DNA of 64,000 bases from Yuukianura sp. NJ FZ-2021 (GCA_046563655.1 CM102285.1:8246001-8310000); one strand, 5' to 3'. Numbered from the stretch's first letter, positions 12,531-62,457 are shown. Made by a program: numbers and translations. The notes: generated from the letters alone by a model not told the origin.

Positions 12531-13934
12531 CTAAACAGCCTTCACCGGACGAGAATTGTGGAAACGGTTGAGAAGTGCTCTCCAAATACTGCCTGGGAGT
12601 ACTTGATGCTCCAGTATCAGATTCTGGATGGCTGCCGAAGTCTAAACGAATGAAATATTTTACGTTATGATTTTGAAATGACTAAGTCAATGATTCGTAT
12701 TTAGAGAACTTTCGTCAGTTAACCTTAGCTGCCAAAGTTTCAGGCGTCATTGCTGGATCGTAGTGAATTGGCTTCCCAATGATTGTCTTCATTTTGACGG
12801 GAAAGAAACCATAGACAGGAATGATTGGCAACTTGGTTCTTGCATAAAGCCAATGCCAGAATCTACTCCCCCATTGCACTGTCCGGAAGGCTTCACGTAT
12901 ATTTTGAGTAAACATTGGCAGAATCGGTGCTTGGGCCTCAATCGCTACTTTGGCAAAGCCCAGTCGTTTTTTCCACAAAACTTCATACTGTTCTGTACCA
13001 AATTGAGCTTCGTACACACCTCCTGGGGCAATAGCAAGGACGTTTCCTTCCTTCAGAAGGTTGGAACAAACTGTGACAGTTCCAGGGATAACCTTGCAGG
13101 CTTCCAGCATTGGTGACCAACCTAATAACGTCATTGTCATCAGGTTGAGTCGAAATGTTGTAATGAAATTCCAATGATTGTGATATTACCAGGAATTTTG
13201 AACAGAAACCTGTCCCCGACTGTGTGGATGAGACGATTTTTCTTTAAAATCACTCCAGCGATTAAGTAATATACGTCGATGGGAAGAGCTCCATGATAAT
13301 AAACTATTAATGCAGGTCCCGAATCTGGAATATTGTCAAGTCCCTCGATTTCATGACCTACAAAATTAAAACAAAGTAATTCCTATAAACAAAATAGATT
13401 TTTTTTATTGTAACGTTGTAAGTAGTAAATTGAAACTGACTTGCAAGAAGCAAAACACTCACCATGCCACAGCCAACCGATGGTTTCCCAAATCACAGCG
13501 AGAGTTTTTAGAGCACCATCCCAAAAGTCATGACGATAAGCATCAACCAGACCTCGTCTGAAAAACGTCAAAAAGAATTGAAAGTTAAAATACTTAGGAC
13601 AATCCATACAGGACGGTCTACCGTGTATAACAGTGACGAAGAAAAATCGAACCACAAACCGACAAACCCTGCGTAAAACTAAATATCATTGGGTTCACTT
13701 AATCGACGAACCTGTATTTATAAATAAAAAGCCATAACGCGTTCATATAAAGTAGCACAAGGATGACCACGGGTAGTAAAAAGACAATCATCACTGGAGT
13801 AAAAAGCCATCCCAGCCTACAGAGATAAATAAAGTTCACAGTTACTAAAAGGTAACTTTAGCTTTTTATTTGTTGAATATGAATTTTATTAACGTTTTAA
13901 CTCACCATCTCATGTAATCAATATCAACGTTCAT
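12531..13934 (-). CDS. TMEM68: TMEM68-like membrane acyltransferase (PlsC/DGAT-like fold), about 301 aa
   Basis: Exons 13906-13934, 13712-13816, 13463-13557, 13190-13357, 12724-13121, 12531-12641 are in frame. N-terminal hydrophobic segment WLFTPVMIVFLLPVVILVLLY, then WHGHEIEGLDNIP..PALIVYYHGALPIDVYY, HTVGDRFLFKIPGW, AIAPGGVYEAQF, RLGFAKVAIEA..PILPMFTQNIREAFR. The start codon is uncertain. Confidence 0.9.
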
Positions 13935-16041: not shown

Positions 16042-19000
16042 TCACGTTTTCATTTGCCATACCATTAGGGTTGTGCATTGCTTTGATTCAGCCTCCGAAC
16101 TGTTGATGAATTGATCATGGTAATTCTGGGATCTCATGTTGATGTACCCTCGACCTCCAACTACCACAATCAGAGTCCGTTCAGACCGTGGCTTGAGTCT
16201 ATTCTTGCTAGTGGTAGTTGTGCCTCGGTTAATCGTTTTCTTTGTTGTTCCGGGAGTGGGTGGTGGTGGATTTGTACTGGGGAGATTTGAGGTAGATGTA
16301 GAGGACACTGTGGGTTTCAAGGACTGGTCAATATCCAACTGTCCAACAGGGGTAGGTGTATTAGGTGTATCGGTTCTCTCTGTGGCTCGACTGTTTCTGG
16401 AACCATGTCCAAGTCCAACACTTTCGTCACTGGAAGCAGAAATTTTGGAGTCTACGGACCAATTTGAAAGGTCAAGCGACCTTGGACGACTCATGCGCAT
16501 CTTGATACGACGATCCAAAGTACTGATTTTTGCATCCAAGGCAACTAGCTCTGGGTCACTTCGTCTCAACGCATCGTAAAGAGGATCCAGGAATCGACCT
16601 TCATCTTCCAGCCCTCTGACGTTAATCAAGTTACCGTAGAGACCATACACATCAGAATCGATACTAAACCGGTTGAGTGGAATTGGACCACCGCGCGGTA
16701 AAGTTTTGCAGTTTCGATTCATGCCGCTCTCTCCCCTAGAATTCTTTTTCCGAAGTACTACAAGCGTTTTGTGGAATCCGCCAAGTGAGGGCAAAAGATC
16801 GTTAGTGCGACTGCTTAGCCCCAAACCACTGGCAATGCTCTGAAGCGGAGAGCTTGAATGGGAACCTTGCTTAGAAGACTCGTTGAACGAACTGCTGTTG
16901 CTTAAGCTAGGACTCGCTGATTCTGATTTAGTTTCAACCTCTTTTCCATTCACATGGTCTCGGAAATTCGTTCTCGGCGGCGTTCGGTACTTTTCGTCTT
17001 CATCCAAACCGCTCTCAGCGTCTTTGTGTTCGCTAAATGTCACTGGAGTGACAGATTTTTGTGATTTTTGAGTCGAAGGTGTCTTTGGCACGGTAGAGAT
17101 GTTGGCTGGAGATGGAGTTGGAACAGATGAAGGTGCTTTGGTAAGTGGCATGAGGAATGTGACTGGTCCAAAGTAGCCGTGGTAAGATACATTGGCTTTT
17201 CCAGTATTGATGATGGGCACTCCCTCTAGCCGCGGAAGTGGAATCGTCAGAACCACGCCCAAGTTGGTTCCGATCCAGAGCCAGCCTTTGTGGGCCATGA
17301 GGCAAGTGACATAGCATCCCTTCTGTCGCCGGTATGAATCACGTACGGTACGGTAAACGCTGGGAGCAATGCTCACATCTTGAAGATGTTGAAGCGATTC
17401 TAGATGGTAGAGGCAAACTGTTCCACTTTCATGGGTTGTAATCCAGAGACCAACGCCAGAACATGTCATGTGAGAAATTGGACCGTTGTGATGAGTTAGA
17501 ACAACACTTTTCTGAAATTGGAAATAAAATTTTTTAAAATGATGCGTGTTTTCAAAATTTTCGAGGGTAATTTGAAATGAACTTACTTCGATTGTGTGCG
17601 TTTTTGCGTCGATGATCACAACTGCATTTCCACATGAGGCGTAGATGTGCTCCCTGGCTCCAAATACGGAAACGATTTTTTCCGAACCCAGGCTGAGTAG
17701 TTTCGAAGGTTCGAGTGGCTTTGGATTTTGAATTTGCGTAAAAACTGCTAAAGTGCCGTCGCTCATTCCTGCGTACACTGTGCTGCCGAAAAGTGAAAGT
17801 TTCAACACGCTTTCAGTCAACAGGCATTGGCTAATGTGACCTTTCTCTGTATCCGATGGATCAAATATCATGACCCTGAAAATAAAATTCAATTTTTAAA
17901 ATGAATTCAAAAAACTGAAGGTTAATTTTCAAAAACGAGAGGTTTGCTCCTTAATACTTTCCACCTTCCACATATCCACAAACATTCCAGAAATTGTGAG
18001 AAATTTTGAAATTCTGCGGCAAATTGATATGAATGTGACTTACTTCCGACTTTCAGTTGCCATCCAGACATGACCTGAGACGAACAGCAGGTCATTGACC
18101 TTCTCTTCCACCAAGTCAAACGACGTTACTTCTTTGAGAACGTTTTGTTGAGATCTGTATGAAGTTATGTGACTTGAAAATCCGTCGGTACAGCTCACCC
18201 AAAGATAGTCCAAGATTTTAGAGCGTCCTGTGGGACTCACTGAAGTATGCGTGAAGAAGCAGCCTGCTTTCACCTGAAATTCAAGAAAACTTTTAGTCAA
18301 CTCAGGACTTAAATTTTTCAAAATTTTAAATTTTTTTCTCAAACCGTATTGAGATGTGGTGAGCGACAGAGTGGCAGGGATCTAACGAATAAGGGAAGCC
18401 GATGTTGCGGATACGGCGATTCCTGTGGTAAGTCCCAACCTGGACTGTTGTTTGGATCCAATGCCAATTGCGCCAATCGGAGTTCTTCAATCCACTCGTT
18501 CCGAGCTGCAGGACTTGGCATTTGAAATACAACTTTCTCCCGATTAGTTCCAGTTCCAAGCAAAAGTGTGAGACAGGAAGAGTCAAAATAGGAAATTTGT
18601 TCGTCACGACATCTAATTTGGTGTTGGATTTCAAGCAGCAATTCTTTGATGTAAGATTCTGTGAGTCCTTCATAAGTTGACTTGAGTGTTGAAATTAATT
18701 CTGAGATTCGACTTAGAACTGAGTAGTCGTGCATGAGGCACTGCATTTCTTCTAAGAGACAAAGCGACTGTTGCGTCTCTTCGTCTGGAGTTGACGCAGT
18801 GCCTCCAGCTTCATTCGAACCAGTTTTTTGGCGTCCGAAACTAACGTATCGACTCATTGTTGGCGATATTGAGAGGTCTTCGACTTCAATTTCTCTGACG
18901 GGGTAAGACCACTTGAAAACACTTTTCTCCACTTTCCCATTAAGGTTGACCGTAGAAGACTGTTGGGCTGGAGCTTTGTCTGTATTGATGTAACTGTTTC

Positions 19001-22000
19001 GTCTTCCAGCCCTTTCTGACGAAGAGGTCGAAGCGCCACTGGAACTCATGGTAACACAAATCAGCATGTCGTTGAGGAGGAGGAGTTTTCTCGTTTTGGA
19101 CTTGGCTACTGTTCCTCCATTGCTATCAAACTCTAACTGCGTCACCAAATCTTGACGCAGAAGAATTCGATTGGGATCGTCAGCAATTGACCTCAAAAGG
19201 ACAAATTTCCCACCGCCAATGGACTTGATTGTTTCTCGAAAAGCTTGGTATTGCTCAGACTCGCGTTTTCTTTCGTTCAGCATGGCTGCTAGGCTCTCTA
19301 ATTGTGTCAATGCCAGTTGCAAAGACATTCTGTCATGATGATCCTTCGGCGTGTGTTTGAGCAAATCCTGCGCACAACATTTCAAAAGTTTTGAAACATG
19401 CAATTACAGTAAATTGAGAGGGGAATGAAATTCCAGAACCATCGATTTACCTGCAGAAGGAGGATAAATTGTGGGAATCGTTGAACTGGTTTGACCATGA
19501 GTCCAAATAGAGACAACCGATCATGCGCAGTCATCTGCTTCACTTTGAGGAACTCTGCAAAGGCACTTTTTCGACGAGCTTCCGCTTTGGCTGTTTCCAT
19601 GGCTTGTCCAAAGTTATTGATGAATTCAGAATAGACGTCCAGAACGAGGCTCTTTGAGAAGGAAGCCACGAATACATCTCCAATTTTCTCATCAGTGTCC
19701 CACTTACGGATGTATTCGGCCAGAGCTATTCGGAACAGCGAGTGACACTGAAGGATTTCTGGAACGCGATGGAACACCGTGGCAATTTTTGAGTGACTCA
19801 ACATTACAGGATGGCTGCACTCCAGTGGTTTCTTGTATTCCTGTGCCAAATTTAAAATTCAGTCATTTAGAATCCAATCTGACCGTTTTTCATCAAATGG
19901 TCTGCAAATTAATTACTTCCTTGTCACTCAAAGTCAGAAATTATGCAAACAGCTTCGTTTCTGGTATCAACATGTCAAAAAATTTTGAAACTCGTTCATC
20001 AGTATCAAGAAAAGGTGTTTGAACTTTGAAATGAAAAAAATTGCAAATCGAAGACGGTAAAGATATTAGGAATTGACGACTTGAAGATTTCGAATGCGGT
20101 TTAAATGATTTGTGGCGAATAATCAAGCCTCCTTAACACCATGAAAGGCAAATCATTCCGCTTCGGTGAGTTCAAAAGTGACATTAATTGCGACTTGCCA
20201 AAATGCGAAAACCAGACACGACTCGAAATGCTTTCGGCTTTGATTTGCCAAACCTTATGCCGTTTCAGGTGCACACTGACATTGAGTGAGAGTGAAGTAA
20301 AAATTAAATATAATTTTGGTTTTAAAATTAAAACTAAAGAAATTTTCATGTCATGAACCCACTTTGGCTTACAGTTGTAGCATAACATCGCTCCCGAAAT
20401 GAAATTTTATACAGTATGTACGCGTGAAAATAAAATTTCAAAGTTTTGTGAGACGTTGCTTACGTTGACTAGTCGCTGAAGTGCTGAGACGTAGTTGTTC
20501 TCACTGTGAACAATCGCTGCGACGATGTGTCTCCGTGTAATTTGCTCTGGAGTTAGGTCTGGCGGTGGGACTGGAAGCGTAGGGGGCAGCACTGTTCTCC
20601 TCGGCCAGTAGCCTTCTTCGTCTTCCATGAAGCTCAAGCGCTTAAGATCTTCTTCGCTTAGTAAAGGCAGAGTGCTGTTCCGATTGTTTCCAGCGTTAGT
20701 TCCGGCGCTTGCGCCGTCCACTGTTGTGGTGCTGCCGCCATGATGATTCTTCCTCAGAGAAAACCACCGTAACAGACGATTCTCCTCTTCCATATTAGTT
20801 TTTGAAAGTGTCTTAGACTGTGTCCAGGACTCTCTCCATTTGTCCTTGATCCCTGATCCACGACGGAACTTTGGGGCTTTCGGGATATGATCTGGAACAA
20901 TTGGACTACTGTGGGAAACAGAAACATAAATGTCAAAATATATTTATTTATATAATATAAAATTAAATAAAGAATTCGTGAGGAAGAAATGCTACTAGGA
21001 ACAAAAGCCTACAGCAGGGATCGCTGTTATATTTTTTAGGTCAGAAATTAAACAGATTGCTGAGGGAAGGAAGCTGGCGGACGCGTGTTAAACTCTCAAA
21101 CTTCAAAGTGATTTAGCAGTTTTCATCTTTTCTTGGATGTGACGTAGCTTGAGTAACTAACGATTAGGAATACTTTTTGCTATCCTCAAAACTAACCTTG
21201 GGAAGAGCAGAATATGAATTAGCGTCAAGGCCTTCCATCTTCATTACTTTGAAACCATACTATAAATAATATACCTCAATCAGCTAATAGTGTGGGATGC
21301 TTTTACATTCACCTGAATTTAAACACTTTACCTACGATTTACGACGTGAGTCACACTTTAAATCTAATTCTAATATTAGCACAACTTTCGATGCACAAGT
21401 TGAACACGTTTTCTGAACTGTTTAGATTCCAAAGTGCACTAAATCCCTGCTGGCTTCTTAGCAGAAAGATACGAGAGACAATGGAAATGTAACGAGGCAT
21501 TCTAAAAAGTTATGTCAATGAGGAATAATTAAGTTGTAAAAGTAATTTAGTAAACCAAACATTGGAAAAGTGAAGGCAAAGAAGGTGGAGGAGATTGTCC
21601 GCTGCTGGCAAAGTTTTGTTTAGCTTTTGTAAGTGGATGTCGATTTGCAATTTGCAAAGTGTGACCCCATCCCTAGCTCAAGCTTAAACTAGAGTGCTCA
21701 TGGTCGTAAAGCAATTTTAGCACACTTGGAATGATTAATTTTTATGATAATCAACTCTTCACTGCTTTAAACCTCTCTCAAGCTTCAAAGCATTTGCTGA
21801 CATTTGCCAAACGAAAAGAAAATGTAAATGACAAGGTGAATTCCTACACTTTCCTCTGTGTACAAGTTATGCGCCGCTCATCAAAAAATCACTGACTCCT
21901 AAAATTGCTTTTTTGCAACCTTAGCTGCTTGGAAGTTCGATTGTCATTTAATCTTCATTTTCATGAAACGCTATTTCATGCACTGACGCTGATGGATAAG

Positions 22001-37181: not shown

Positions 37182-39765
<2,584 letters not shown>

Positions 39766-40743: not shown

Positions 40744-46005
<5,262 letters not shown>

Positions 46006-46824
46006 ACATTTCAAGGGTCAAGCACATTCAGATCAAAGATTTCAATCATAAACCAACTTTGGATTATTTGGATCGGAGTCTAGATTTTAGTTGAGCGAAA
46101 TGCTTTGAAAAGTTTTTTAACCCTGTGCTTTTCATTCCAACTATTGCTGTTTTAAATCCCAAAACATAACGTTTTAAACTATATGGGGCTCTTGTAACTA
46201 ATTTCAATCATGTAAAAATTTAATGGAACTTAAGAAACGATAATTAACTGCTTGTATTAAAAAATATGGTGCGAATACCAAAAACTAAACTCTGAACATG
46301 AATTTGCGCGTGTCAACACTGTATCCGTACAACTTGGATTTGTTCTACTTTTTGGTGCATTGTTTCCTGATATTTATCTGCTCTTTTTATCAACACTAAT
46401 TTTAGTAACTCCAAAATATGCTTCAGCCAAGTAATTCGAAACGACACTAGGCTTCCTGTTCCTGATGCTGCCGGCCGTATCTCGAATGATTGTTGACGTC
46501 GTGCCTAACAGTGAAAACACAAGGTTTTTTATGACGCCATTCTCTGGTCCCCAGTTGGTTTGGTTTCATAAGTGAAAACGATTAGATTATACTCACAAAA
46601 AATAGCTGCATTAGCAATTTTCCAACTGATAATTAAAATTCAGTTTGGAAACTGGGATTCTGCACGTTTAGTCAGTCATGAGGTTTTCCCTGTTTTTATA
46701 CCATATGCACTGTTTACTAACTTTAGTCCAGGATGCAGTTTGAATGACAAGGGAAATGTGAATTGTCGTGGTTTGTGGCTGGACAAAGTCACTGCTCGAT
46801 TCCATCTCTGATTCAACCGCCATC

Positions 46825-49800
46825 ATGGCTTCTGTTACATCATTTCCTCTAGTAATTCTAACTGCCCTGCTAATTTCCAATTTGTGCTTGACAACCGTGG
46901 GAAAAGTGTTCAAACCATGCGAATTGGGTCGCATCCTAATGGACCAAGGAATTGAATTTGACCGAATTGGAGACTGTAAGTTCGGCTTCATTTTGGATGC
47001 TACAGAACAAAACTTGATGGAATTTTTGGAAAAAGTTTCAATATTGATGCTTATGACGTCTGGTTTTTGGAATTGATTTATTCGGTATTCGTCACTTCTC
47101 AAAGGGATCTGCCTGGCTAGAGCAGTTAGCCTTTACAATTCATCCATGATAGGGGGTCAATTTACGAATGCGAACAAGAACATGGAATACGGAATCTTTC
47201 AGGTAGGCTTCACAACAATTTTTTAAAGTTTCAGGTTTTAGTTGAAACCGCCATTTCATATTGGACATATTTCTTAGATTAGCAACTACTACCACTGCTA
47301 CGATGAGTATAAAAAGAAGCTCAATAACTGCGGTCTAAACTGTACAGGTTAGGAAAACAATTGACTACTAATAAATCAGAAAGTAATTTTATAATCAGAA
47401 ATAATCAGAAAGTATTTTCATAATTTCAAACAAATAAAATGATTTTTGTAACTTTGCATGAAAAACCTCAATTTCGATACTGACGCAGTAAAATTTTGAT
47501 TTGTGCCAATATTTTAGATCTGATTGACGATAACTTGGAAGATGACATTCGTTGTGCCAGATTACTGTACACGCAAAATCGGCGGACGTTTAGAAGTTGG
47601 GGACCAGCGTTTGGAAAACATTGCAATAGCACTGACGGCAATTCCAAGTATTATAAAGGTTGCGATTTTGCAAATGGTACGGCGTATTTCCAATTTCTCA
47701 CGAACCAATGGGAAACGGACTTACGATTAGTTTTAAGGAAATGTTTTTAATTTCCTATCAATGTTTTCAGGAATGAAGCCAAAAATTGAGGGCGAGCACG
47801 AAACGAATTCAACAGTAGTCATCACCAGTTTGAGTCCAGGTCGCATTATCGTTAGTTGTCGAGTGTATGGCACCCTTCCTATCGAAGTTAGCTGGACTAA
47901 AAACCGAAATGTAAGGATATTCGATTTCAATTTCGTCGTAATTCCGTTAAGCCAAAGCCAATGTAACTTTTAAAACTTCGAAGACGACGCTTTATAGTTT
48001 ATACAGAAATTTACTGCTTCTTTGTATTCATGCCAGGCTTACAGCAGTTCAGACCCGGATTTCAAAGTACACACCACGGTCGATGACTTAACGAACTCCA
48101 CCGTGTCAACAGTATTTCTGCGTCATGTTAATGTTACGCTCACCGAGTACGTGACGCTGTTCACTTGTATTGCCCAAAACCAATACGGAAGTGACCATGC
48201 CGACTTTCTGGTCAAAATTATTGAGCCACCGGACAAAACAGACCCGCCAGATTCCATTGCCAGGAAGGCTGTGGAACTCGGACTAACATTTTTTGTGACA
48301 TCCGTCATAATCCTCACGGTGGCTGTAGTCGCTTATAAACGCGCTGTTAAGGAAAAGGTAAATATTTGTATTACATTTCAACTCATTCACTGTAGCTAAT
48401 GTAACTTCATTATGAAAGTTCGTAACAACTTTAAAAAAAACTAAAAATTAAGCTTTTGTTAATTCGTAGGGAGGTCTTACTGCCGCAGAAATTGAGAATT
48501 TTAAAAATGGCGACCACTCAGAGGATAAAAATTTGAATTCGTCCGAATACATTAACGAAGCTCTGACTTTCACGCCTTACAATCCGGAGTTCGAAATTTT
48601 AAGAAGCGAATTAGAAATAGGTATGGAAAATCGGTTCGTGAAATCAAGCAAGTTTTCTTAATGCAAAAAAATTGTTTAGAAAAAAGAGATCTCCTCGGTT
48701 CTGGTCAGTTTGGTTTGGTTTACAAAGGGAAATTCAATGGCAAAAACGTAGCCGTCAAAACGCTCAAACCAAATGCAGATAAAATGTACCTCAAAGCATT
48801 GCTTTCAGAACTCAAAGTTCTGATATATGTCAAAGGTCATGGAAATGTGACTGAAGTTATTGGCGCTTACACTCAAGAGTTGGATAAAGGTAACAGACTT
48901 TACATTAGTAGCTTTAAACAGATCGTTATTTATTGCATATCCTGAAATATCTCGTTGAAAAGCGGAAAACCTCGCCTAAATGCCAGACATTTTGCTGAGG
49001 TATTTTTGGAAATCATTTTTAGCGGGGATATTTTGGGAGAAATACTTGTCATGATGGTTCATTCTTATTAAAATTACGTGTTTTACCATCTAGGTGTACT
49101 TTTGGTCGTATTGGAACTTTGTCCGCTGGGAAGCTTACTCAAATACCTCCAAGCGTACAGGCTAAACAGCCATGTCAGTTCCACTTCCGATGCGAAGCGA
49201 ACTTTGTCAGAATCAAACAACGAAGATACCGTAGAAGACGCTACCGTCATTGACCAACGCCTAATGGTAGCGTGGAGCTATCAAATTGCAAGTGGAATGG
49301 ATTATTTAACGACCAAGAGAGTGGTTCATGGAGATTTAGCTGCAAGAAATATTTTACTGCGAACGCCTCAACTTATTAAAATTACGGATTTCGGACTTTC
49401 CAAAAAATTGTATACCTATTCAACGTATGCGTATGGAGAGGTAGGAAAACGCGCAAGAATATCATCAAAAGGCATTTTGTCACTTGAAAGATAATTGAGT
49501 GGTTTACAGGGACCAATACCTTGGGAATGGGAAGCACCCGAGACGCTAAGTTACCTAAGATTTTCAGCGGCTTCAGATGCTTGGTCATTTGGGGTAACGC
49601 TATGGGAGATATTCAGTTTTGCTCAAAAACCGTATTCAGGTCTGTCTTGGACCCCCGATTTTCCAAATCAGTTGGAAAATGGACTTCGCCTTACGAAGCC
49701 GAATGACGCTTCCGATTCTATGTATGATGAGTTGCCAATTACTCGATTAGATTCGGAGCTTTTTAATCAAGATTAAGTGTTCTGTTGACTATAGATTCAA

Positions 49801-50037
49801 TATCATGGAAAACTGCTGGAAGTTTAACCCAACAGATCGCCCAACGTTTAAATTCTTAAGAGAACTTTTGTATCTAGAGGTTGCCAAATTTTCAACAGTG
49901 GTAAGATGTCGGTACAAAGTAACTTTTGAAATTCTGTCTAACTTAACCGATTTTATTTAATTTTTTAGCGGTATGTTGATTTTACTCCGGACTCTGCTCC
50001 AGTGTCCGAAGATTACCGAAACGTGGGATTTGTGTAA
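46825..50037 (+). CDS. Receptor tyrosine kinase with c-type lysozyme-like + Ig ectodomain and PVR/PDGFR-like non-RD kinase (677 aa)
   Basis: Twelve GT-AG exons in one frame (2034 nt): 46825-46975, 47105-47202, 47278-47347, 47518-47676, 47771-47910, 48037-48357, 48470-48620, 48680-48889, 49094-49440, 49510-49721, 49795-49900, 49969-50037. Signal peptide MASVTSFPLVILTALLISNLCLTTVG. Lysozyme domain KVFKPCEL..WICLA..YGIFQISNYYHC..NNCGLNC..DDIRCA..W..HC..GC with 8 Cys. Ig domain VSCRVYG..EVSWTK..FTCIAQNQYGSD. TM LGLTFFVTSVIILTVAVVAY. Kinase LGSGQFG, VAVK, SELK, HGDLAARN, DFG, APE, SDAWSFGVTLWEIFS, CW..P..RPTF. Confidence 0.88.
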
Positions 50038-61056: not shown

Positions 61057-62457
61057 TTAGATTGAGCTTGACAGTGTGTCCTTGTAATAGTCATCTATGA
61101 ATTTGTCCTTTGGCTTTAAGATGCACTTGTCTCGCAAGTTGACAACCCATCCAGGAGAAAGTCCATAAAATATTTGCCTTGGATCCTTCCTTTCCAGCAG
61201 CAGTTCTCGTTGTGGATCAGTTGCCAAATCAGGGAGAATGTAGCCGTACTTCTGTGCTAGGATCAATCTTTCTTCTGCAATTAAATCCGGATCAGCTAAG
61301 TACCCACGGAACTTAGGATCCGAGTAATATTCGACAGCATCTTCTGGTGGCAGCATTCGTTTGGGAATAGGAACACCTTTTGAAAAGAACTGAATTGGAT
61401 CTCGGGCTGTGATTAGGCTGTCCATGTCATAGTATGCTGTTGTGATGGTTCCGCCATTCTTCTCCACCGCTGCAATAACAGCCTCCGTTGTCCATTGGAC
61501 TTCGATGTTCACTTTAGCAGAGAATTGGTCAAGGCCCTGTTGGTTCGAAGGTATAATATACACGCCAGGATTTTAACAAATCAAAACACTTCAAGTTGTT
61601 TGAGTCTGCAATTTGTGTGAGAACTTTTACCTCGTCAGTTAAATTGAATCCGAAGTGACGCTTGAATGGATCAAAAATGCAGACTTTGGTGTTGCTGAGG
61701 GCCACTATGTCAATGGGATCGTTGGGATTTAGCCGATTTGTGTCAATGAGGCTCTGTAGTTTTAATAGACTTAGATGTGGATATTGTCTCCGCAAACTAA
61801 AAGAAAAAACAAAAAATTCAGCATAACAGTACTGCCGGAAGCCGCACGTATCATATTCATTTGATATTGAAATTGAAGAATCTCTTCATTTGAAAATGAA
61901 GAGATTCTTACCTATGATCCTTGTAGTAGTGTTCAACTGGTATTCGCAAGTAAAATGGCGTTCTGCGGGCTCCTTCGTAACCAAGTTTTCCAAAATTCAT
62001 TCGTTGCATTCCTCCCTTGTGAGGATAACCGTGAAGCTTACCGCCATGTTGACCTCGACCAAGCGTTTTCTGCAAGCAAAAATCAAATAATTGTATTCAA
62101 ATATTAGTAGAACAACGAAGGACAAACATAAACAAATGAATATGACTATAAAAAATTAGAATTGAAAAAGTTTCCAAATTCCTCTTCACTCAACCCGCTC
62201 AACCGTCTCTTTTTATTTCCTACAGGGTATGAAGTTTTTTTTAAATAAAACTCAAACCAACTTAAGCTTGGTTATTTGATTCTGTACATCCTCTGAAGAA
62301 CCTAAATATAATACAAGATGGGATCGAAATTCCTGAATATGGTCTTAATTTTACTAACCGGACGTCGTTCCTCTCTGCCTTTGAGGTTACCCAGTGCAAT
62401 TCGAGGTAATGTTCTTATTAGGGCGAGAGCTTTGTCAGCACCAGATCGTAGAGCCAT
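61057..62457 (-). CDS. MRPL15: Mitochondrial ribosomal protein L15 (uL15m), 300 aa
   Basis: Exons 62359-62457, 61912-62069, 61631-61796, 61057-61536: [25 protein letters not shown]...[28 protein letters not shown]...[89 protein letters not shown]. Confidence 0.95.

Follow-up and report, generated by a model that had tools for sequence, protein, structure and literature searches.

What kind of receptor carries a lysozyme-like domain outside the cell and a tyrosine kinase inside it? The question is raised by a locus of the springtail Yuukianura sp. NJ FZ-2021 (GCA_046563655.1, CM102285.1:8246001-8310000), where we analysed a stretch of 64,000 nucleotides, here called the window, and counted all positions from its first letter. 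At 46825-50037, twelve exons predict a type-I membrane protein of 677 residues that runs from a signal peptide through a c-type lysozyme-like domain, one Ig-like domain, a transmembrane (TM) helix and a juxtamembrane segment to a tyrosine kinase. We put at roughly 0.7 the probability that this is one springtail receptor gene, in which a catalytically dead lysozyme and an Ig domain form the ectodomain of a tyrosine kinase that comes from a springtail-specific expansion. Animal receptor tyrosine kinases (RTKs) are classed by their ectodomains, and to our knowledge none of the textbook classes uses the lysozyme fold.

The gene model

The model was built by script from the sequence and its three-frame translation. 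The twelve exons join in a single frame into a coding sequence of 2034 nt with no internal stop, and all 11 introns, of 59-204 nt, begin with GT and end with AG. An in-frame stop at 46759-46761 lies upstream of the ATG, and the TAA stop is overlapped by an AATAAA at 50036. The initial annotation of this locus had proposed the same twelve exons at the same coordinates, with a 94-bp phase-1 intron at 47677-47770, and the rebuilt model agrees with it throughout. The six ectodomain N-glycosylation sequons it listed were counted again as N-x-S/T at residues 62, 104, 143, 172, 226 and 238, and the juxtamembrane string it quoted, TPYNPEFEILRSELEI, was recovered at residues 348-363.

The signal peptide and the TM helix were read directly from the sequence. 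The hydrophobic N-terminus spans residues 7-25, and the mature protein would start K-V-F, like lysozymes. A lone further hydrophobic stretch, residues 287-306, is followed by K-R-A-V-K-E-K, so that signal peptide, helix and basic stop-transfer sequence together give a type-I topology with the kinase inside. In the mature ectodomain the cysteines add up to an even number, 8 + 2. One other phase-compatible donor for exon 10, at 49730, was set aside: its gttgcc is weaker than the gtatga of 49721, and its use would insert three extra residues. With the donor at 49721 the segment from P to C-W is 16 residues long, which we take to be the usual tyrosine-kinase spacing, and the better donor and this spacing are the reasons for retaining it. 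The 64-kb window holds no second copy of the receptor gene; other tblastn matches appeared only at E >= 1.5.

A lysozyme fold without the catalytic pair

Is the N-terminal domain a lysozyme? Pfam scans were run exon by exon on the 12 exon translations, and the Lys profile was found in exons 2 and 4 as two weak, collinear matches, both below the 27-bit cut-off (Table 1). A local lysozyme hidden Markov model (HMM), built from four lysozyme domains with this gene excluded, matched residues 26-154 of the spliced protein at E 6.2e-23 (75.4 bits), and blastp against the canonical lysozyme repeats of a longer protein, P0263, gave 67-68 bits. All eight lysozyme cysteines stand in register with those repeats (C32, C53, C90, C101, C105, C119, C142, C155), the domain is equal in length to a c-type lysozyme or alpha-lactalbumin, and the G-I-F-Q-I-S core is present. 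Exon 4 aligns with residues 84-128 of the canine and equine Ca-binding milk lysozymes C at E 0.0011 (PDB 2z2e, 1el1, 2eql), and exon 2 aligns with the Musca domestica lysozymes 2fbd/3cb7 at E about 1. The profile match thus points to the c-type lysozyme / alpha-lactalbumin fold family (PF00062, GH22), and the domain is predicted to keep the four disulfides.

The chemistry is another matter. In alignments to the Musca lysozymes and to the canonical repeats, the position of the catalytic Glu35 is occupied by Val58 and that of the catalytic Asp52 by Glu78; we take Glu35/Asp52 to be the hen egg-white lysozyme (HEWL) numbering of the pair, presumably Glu32/Asp50 in Musca lysozyme. The domain therefore lacks the Glu and Asp of an active GH22 muramidase. 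Because both catalytic positions are substituted, muramidase cleavage is not expected, and we regard the domain as a predicted pseudo-enzyme in which the fold is present. The initial annotation had spoken of a full c-type lysozyme of family GH22; the fold, the eight cysteines and the profile match hold good, but the intact enzyme does not.

Opposite the D-D-N-I-D-D-D of canine milk lysozyme (2z2e) the domain has an acidic loop, D-D-N-L-E-D-D. The calcium loop of Ca-binding lysozymes is acidic, lies between Cys80 and Cys94, and follows the pattern K/x-x-x-D-D-x-x-x-D-D. With this pattern kept, the domain appears to belong to the Ca-binding lysozyme/alpha-lactalbumin subgroup, and metal binding is predicted. 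Alpha-lactalbumin, as we understand it, likewise has Glu at the Asp52 position and a non-acidic residue at the Glu35 position; together with SLLP1/SPACA3 and the insect lysozyme-like proteins it is one of the non-catalytic members of the family. Whereas c-type lysozymes are small secreted proteins, the domain considered here forms part of a predicted membrane protein, attached to an Ig-like domain, a TM helix and a kinase, and should have no muramidase activity.

P0263/P0266 (680 aa, NCBI/JGI record), the canonical comparison in this analysis, contains two or more full c-type lysozyme repeats of canonical type, in which the catalytic Glu and Asp are both found. Behind these repeats comes a long tail, mucin-like and rich in Thr, Ser and Lys.

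The kinase and its springtail relatives

The PK_Tyr_Ser-Thr profile is collinear over exons 8, 9, 10 and 11, and outscores Pkinase on every exon that matches both. All the kinase motifs are present: G370-x-G-x-x-G, K390 in VAVK, E407 of alphaC, H-G-D514-L-A-A-R-N519 and D532-F-G. The tyrosine kinase thus looks intact and competent, and from these motifs we infer activity. In its catalytic loop HGD stands in place of HRD, as in the springtail relatives. Tyrosines occur in the juxtamembrane segment, the activation loop and the tail, the last including Y671-R-N; the tail motif in Orchesella cincta is Y-T-N.

From what source was this kinase drawn? An exhaustive HMMER search with exon 9 as query returned 9721 proteins at E <= 0.001, and among the best 150 of the 9721 the nearest belong to the springtails O. 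cincta, O. dallaii, Folsomia candida and Allacma fusca. From the juxtamembrane segment on, these relatives share 37-50% identity with the window protein, and the motif L-T/S-x-x-E-I-x-x-F-x-N-G in that segment is common to the family. In a kinase tree of 38 rows, with EGFR as outgroup, all named rows in the part that holds the window protein are springtail proteins; the clade next to it joins Daphnia, mayfly, planthopper and beetle 'VEGFR-like' proteins with an oyster FGFR and a snail Ret-like protein (SH-aLRT 100), the base of the tree being unresolved. The N-terminal parts of the springtail kinases are diverse: several hydrophobic helices, as in a multi-pass protein, in P0009, P0003 and P0005; four knottin-like cysteine repeats in P0193; and one or more Ig domains in P0255, P0254, P0148 and P0234. 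Most likely, then, judging from sequence comparison, the kinase would come from a springtail-specific expansion of PVR/VEGFR/FGFR-related kinases, in which a juxtamembrane-kinase module is shared and ectodomains have been shuffled.

Assignment to a PVR-like class was considered and rejected. The closest solved kinases vary (EGFR for exon 9; Eph, Syk and PDGFR-alpha for exon 10), so that no vertebrate class can be named, and the protein departs from the PVR/VEGFR pattern (class V RTKs) in having one Ig-like domain instead of seven and in lying outside the Daphnia/insect VEGFR-like clade. With the arthropod PVR/VEGFR-, FGFR- and Ret-type RTKs it shares type I topology, a kinase split by an insert, a juxtamembrane tyrosine that precedes an E-F-E/W-E-F-like motif and, if its weakly matching domain is one, an Ig-like module. 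It differs from them by its single Ig-like domain, where they have 3-7, by the lysozyme-like N-terminal domain, and by HGD in place of HRD. Compared with PVR/VEGFR-type RTKs there is also an extra residue in P-x-x-W-x-x-x-(A/S)-(P/L)-E, a feature common to the springtail family.

Members of the springtail expansion are auto-named VEGFR1/2/3. Three of the entries, P0001, P0002 and P0003, contain 2-3 tandem kinase domains each, a sign that annotation may have merged tandem gene arrays.

Lysozyme-kinases in Orchesella

Does any other protein join the two domains? When the ectodomain was compared with 261 kinase matches, the lysozyme part found a counterpart in one of them only, P0179 (blastp E 2.9e-7, phmmer E 9.1e-8). 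This is O. cincta ODN02922.1 (UniProt A0A1D2NCE9), a protein of 524 aa auto-named 'Vascular endothelial growth factor receptor 1'. Pfam finds in it Lys (PF00062) at residues 20-105 with 49.5 bits, against a cut-off of 27, and PK_Tyr (PF07714) at E 1.1e-74, with a TM segment between. A search with the first 150 residues of P0179 led to P0262, O. dallaii CAL8127381.1, of 597 aa, which is 62% identical over that region and carries PF00062 and PF07714; its sequence has a signal peptide, and its lysozyme domain begins K-K-F-E-K-C.

The two Orchesella proteins resemble the present one in having a lysozyme-like ectodomain, a single TM helix and the juxtamembrane motif L-S/T-A-A-E-I-x-x-F-K-x-G. Their kinases belong to the same springtail family and are 39% identical to that of this gene over about 356 aa. 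Both, too, have lost the catalytic Glu and Asp, the residues at the two positions being non-acidic, and both retain the calcium loop D-D-x-(I/L)-x-D-D, in the form D-D-D-I-T-D-D. They differ in two extra cysteines in the lysozyme domain, and their lysozyme domains are about 30% identical to that of this gene.

The initial annotation knew of no described example of such a receptor. Full-text literature searches found no published description of a lysozyme-domain receptor tyrosine kinase, in keeping with that claim, but the core architecture is already in the databases as ODN02922.1 and CAL8127381.1. The architecture is not unique, and the predicted Ig-like domain is the addition of this gene over the Orchesella entries. 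In the text of the O. cincta genome paper, supplements aside, 'tyrosine kinase' does not occur and 'lysozyme' occurs a single time, where horizontal transfer is discussed (PMC4987106). According to the same text, the annotation was made by MAKER2 with RNA-seq and transcripts, which is not evidence specific to ODN02922.1 (PMC4987106).

More lysozyme-kinases may exist; the lysozyme exons were not searched exhaustively in large protein libraries. A word search with exon 9 returned 113 proteins, with PF00062 listed in 0/113. Matches of exon 4 in metagenomes, at four loci, covered 14-22 residues on contigs of 4-174 kb and were judged to be due to chance.

Table 1. Exons of the predicted receptor gene and the intron between its lysozyme-like and Ig-like parts
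Feature	Position	Strand	Content	Pfam match
Exon 1	46825-46975	+	start codon; signal peptide, residues 1-26 (...TVG/KVF... cleavage-like site); first 24 lysozyme-like residues including C32 (= lysozyme Cys6); donor gtaagt	
Exon 2	47105-47202	+	lysozyme-like core; Val58 at 47125-47127, Glu78 at 47185-47187	Lys E 0.059, profile 29-56
Exon 3	47278-47347	+	lysozyme-like segment; C90, C101, C105	
Exon 4	47518-47676	+	lysozyme-like C-terminal part; D-L-I-D-D-N-L-E-D-D at 47518-47546; C119, C142, C155; ends in phase 1	Lys E 0.012, profile 82-115
Intron 4	47677-47770	+	94 nt, phase 1; between lysozyme-like and Ig exons; no AATAAA or ATTAAA	
Exon 5	47771-47910	+	Ig-like first half, C189 ... W202	Ig_3 E 0.06, I-set E 0.11, both below cut-off
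Exon 6	48037-48357	+	Ig-like second half (Y-x-C at C250); short stalk; TM residues 287-306 at 48277-48336; basic stop-transfer KRAVKEK	
Exon 7	48470-48620	+	juxtamembrane, L-T-A-A-E-I-E-N-F-K-N-G ... Y-N-P-E-F-E-I; common to springtail kinase family	
Exon 8	48680-48889	+	kinase N-lobe: G-loop G370-G375, Lys390 (VAVK), Glu407	PK_Tyr_Ser-Thr E 1.4e-9, profile 6-73
Exon 9	49094-49440	+	hinge; kinase insert of ~30 aa; catalytic loop H-G-D-L-A-A-R-N (D514, N519); DFG 532-534; activation-loop tyrosines	PK_Tyr_Ser-Thr E 5.9e-24, profile 76-158
Exon 10	49510-49721	+	kinase C-lobe: P-I-P-W-E-W-E-A-P-E, D-A-W-S-F-G	PK_Tyr_Ser-Thr E 4e-18, profile 166-231
Exon 11	49795-49900	+	kinase domain end, C-W ... 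D-R-P-T-F	PK_Tyr_Ser-Thr E 3.6e-4, profile 235-257
Exon 12	49969-50037	+	C-terminal tail: Y657, Y671-R-N motif, TAA stop	

One gene, two genes or a chance fusion

Several observations weigh against a single lysozyme-Ig receptor kinase. The splice from exon 4 to exon 5 (47676/47771), on which the joining of the two halves depends, is a prediction. The Ig-like domain is weak in profiles: the two matches of exon 5 are below their cut-offs, and exon 6 has none. A local Ig HMM made from the Pfam-verified Ig domains of three relatives gave E 6.3e-7 for one target, at only 15.6 bits. The Ig core is there as V-S-C...V-S-W...Y-V-T-L-F-T-C (Cys...Trp...Tyr-x-Cys), and by blastp exon 6 matches the Ig-TM region of O. 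cincta P0255 at E 0.005. In the lysozyme-like domain the cleft is altered, the equivalents of Trp62 and Trp63 (presumably HEWL numbering) being Tyr and His, so that glycan binding is not assured. The Orchesella lysozyme-kinases have no Ig domain between lysozyme and TM helix. In the free kinase tree, whose base is not resolved, the three lysozyme-kinases stand apart (2 changes); grouping them costs 5.9 log-likelihood units, and with an approximately unbiased (AU) test p of 0.365 a single clade is neither rejected nor shown. It is possible that the domains were fused more than once, or that the likeness of architecture is partly a coincidence. Finally, of the substitutions considered below (40 of 251 listed), 31 intronic ones come from intron 8, many of them from one divergent haplotype contig.

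Could the predicted junction have joined two neighbouring genes wrongly? There would then be a secreted lysozyme-like protein from exons 1-4, and an Ig-TM-kinase protein starting at an ATG at 47773, 2 nt into exon 5. Read-through of exon 4 into intron 4 does add 24 residues before a stop at 47748-47750, the exon 4 donor, gtacgg, is not the strongest, and the nearest kinases by identity are Ig receptors with no lysozyme: P0148 (45.6%), P0234 (44.5%) and P0255 (43.1%). The product from 47773, however, would be an N-glycosylated Ig domain with no signal peptide of its own, and the 94-nt gap has no polyA signal, neither AATAAA nor ATTAAA, and is too short for a promoter. The Ig exon starts in phase 1, as exon 4 ends, and its acceptor is strong. 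One would expect a secreted lysozyme to retain the catalytic residues that are lost here; a lysozyme devoid of them is easier to understand as part of a receptor than as an enzyme for secretion. Lysozyme-like domains are, moreover, joined to the same kinase family in annotations of two other springtails that were made independently. DNA contigs from 4/4 runs in two studies run from exon 4 through intron 4 into exon 5, so that the adjacency of these parts is not an assembly artefact or chimera. Two misjoined genes are thus an improbable account, and the single gene, in the order lysozyme, Ig, TM, tyrosine kinase, is very probably the right model, as the initial annotation had argued from the short intron and the lack of a signal peptide in the Ig exon. 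It owes its support to the splice logic, to the Orchesella proteins and to polymorphism that spares the reading frame. A secreted lysozyme-like isoform, made by the same read-through of intron 4, is possible.

The polymorphism bears also on a different doubt, that the locus is a recent product of exon shuffling, a chimera or pseudogene without function, open by chance and unused as a receptor. Such an origin would suit a lineage-restricted gene whose Lys-Ig-TM-TK order occurs in 0/261 kinase matches, any Lys domain being found in 1/261, and whose exon 6, with its Ig and TM parts, found no match at E <= 0.001 in a word search against longer proteins. Against it, 12 exons are open across 2034 nt with every splice site intact, the kinase catalytic motifs are all in place, and the cysteines of the mature ectodomain are even in number. 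In a population comparison, from which 40 of 251 substitutions and 12 of 54 indels are listed, seven of the listed substitutions are exonic, and six of these seven are synonymous. Eleven of the listed indels are intronic or downstream, and the sole exonic one, a 3-nt deletion, lies in the signal peptide; the listed frame-breaking indels thus spare the exons. This pattern is supportive, not decisive. On balance we consider a non-functional chimera very improbable.

The same comparison revealed some features of the locus itself. A strongly divergent haplotype, confined to intron 8 (48890-49093), is seen in the population contigs, one X1 contig having 29 substitutions and 11 gaps in a stretch of 275 nt. 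All four runs share an 8-nt insertion at 49774 in intron 10 that the window lacks, which makes the window's form the rarer one there. At position 48600 all runs have C (Ser357), where the window has T (Leu357).

Ligand and signalling

What would such a receptor bind? Any role of the lysozyme-like domain should be binding, not hydrolysis, because both catalytic positions are replaced; from its sequence, the domain probably binds its ligand rather than digests it, and a sensor role for a dead lysozyme domain is well grounded. Binding of a ligand to the lysozyme/Ig ectodomain would bring receptors together as dimers, whose kinases would trans-phosphorylate the tyrosines of juxtamembrane segment, activation loop and tail and so recruit SH2 adaptors. 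Grb2/Drk prefers pY-x-N, and the Y-x-N motif of the tail might serve for docking of that type.

The most likely class of ligand would be a beta-1,4-linked glycan of N-acetylglucosamine (GlcNAc) and N-acetylmuramic acid (MurNAc), such as fragments of peptidoglycan or chitin, though we propose this only tentatively. Such glycans are favoured because of the fold, because the equivalents of Gln57 and Trp108 are retained in the cleft (in alignment with the canonical repeats), and because there is precedent for dead hydrolases as sensors: the non-catalytic PGRPs and the chitinase-like lectins are dead enzymes of cell-wall-hydrolase families that serve as glycan sensors. Drosophila PGRP-LC is a receptor with a non-catalytic PGRP domain, CERK1 is a plant LysM receptor kinase, and tobacco CHRK1 places a dead chitinase on a receptor kinase. 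The principle common to these and to the present protein is a glycan-binding or dead hydrolase domain at the cell surface coupled to signalling inside. The folds differ (amidase_2, LysM, GH18), the others are Ser/Thr receptor-like kinases or have no kinase, and there is no homology. To call the protein a pattern-recognition receptor for peptidoglycan or chitin would be pure inference.

A protein ligand is about equally possible, because Trp62 and Trp63 are changed and because the domain follows an alpha-lactalbumin-like pattern (calcium loop, Glu at 52, non-acidic residue at 35). The receptor would still be real and encoded by one gene, and its dead lysozyme-like domain would be a protein-binding or adhesion module for an endogenous protein in development or cell contact. 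Alpha-lactalbumin binds galactosyltransferase, and the sperm lysozyme-like SLLP1/SPACA3 binds an egg protein. The loss of both catalytic residues and of the two cleft tryptophans, and the resemblance to the Ca-binding lysozyme/alpha-lactalbumin branch, fit such a role; so does the likeness of the kinase family to growth-factor receptors of PVR/VEGFR/FGFR type, and the Ig, knottin-like and multi-TM outer parts of the sister springtail kinases give no hint that glycans are sensed. A glycan is favoured, however, by the conserved equivalents of Gln57 and Trp108, by the springtail habitat, a soil rich in microbes and fungi, and by the known use of dead cell-wall hydrolases as glycan sensors. We hold the protein ligand as tentatively as the glycan.

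Genomic surroundings

Two beta-tubulin copies precede the receptor gene on the plus strand, at 38317-39419 and 45063-45689, about 6 kb apart. Their exon translations are near-identical and match Tubulin and Tubulin_C in Pfam at E 1e-34 to 1e-39. Between the end of the second copy and the receptor gene lie about 1.1 kb. A large gene on the minus strand, at 16042-20943, has an ARHGEF10/17-like architecture (RhoGEF E 4e-25, PH_19 E 1e-34, WD40_2 E 6.5e-50). On the same strand are exons of a DAGAT/acyltransferase-like gene (12715-13185) and, at 61057-61572, of a ribosomal L15/L27A-like protein, probably mitochondrial; these last two are ordinary nuclear gene context.

Significance

In its fullest form the proposal would be that springtails have a family of RTKs whose dead, Ca-binding lysozyme ectodomain senses peptidoglycan or chitin fragments directly and turns this into phosphotyrosine signalling, within a kinase expansion whose ectodomains (lysozyme, Ig, knottin-like repeats, multi-TM) are shuffled in the manner of an immune receptor repertoire. 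So complete a picture is, we think, rather unlikely to be right in every part. If it were, the family would be an animal counterpart of the plant LysM and chitinase-like receptor kinases, and a route of recognition distinct from Toll, IMD and PGRP. Do animals, like plants, couple the recognition of microbial glycans to a receptor kinase? A dead cell-wall hydrolase on a tyrosine kinase would make that question directly testable. Even with a protein as ligand, the lysozyme/alpha-lactalbumin fold would have been recruited as a receptor module, which would be useful for understanding RTK evolution. The springtail kinase expansion itself, with its shuffled ectodomains, is hidden under automatic 'VEGFR' names, and its recognition is useful for correcting those annotations.

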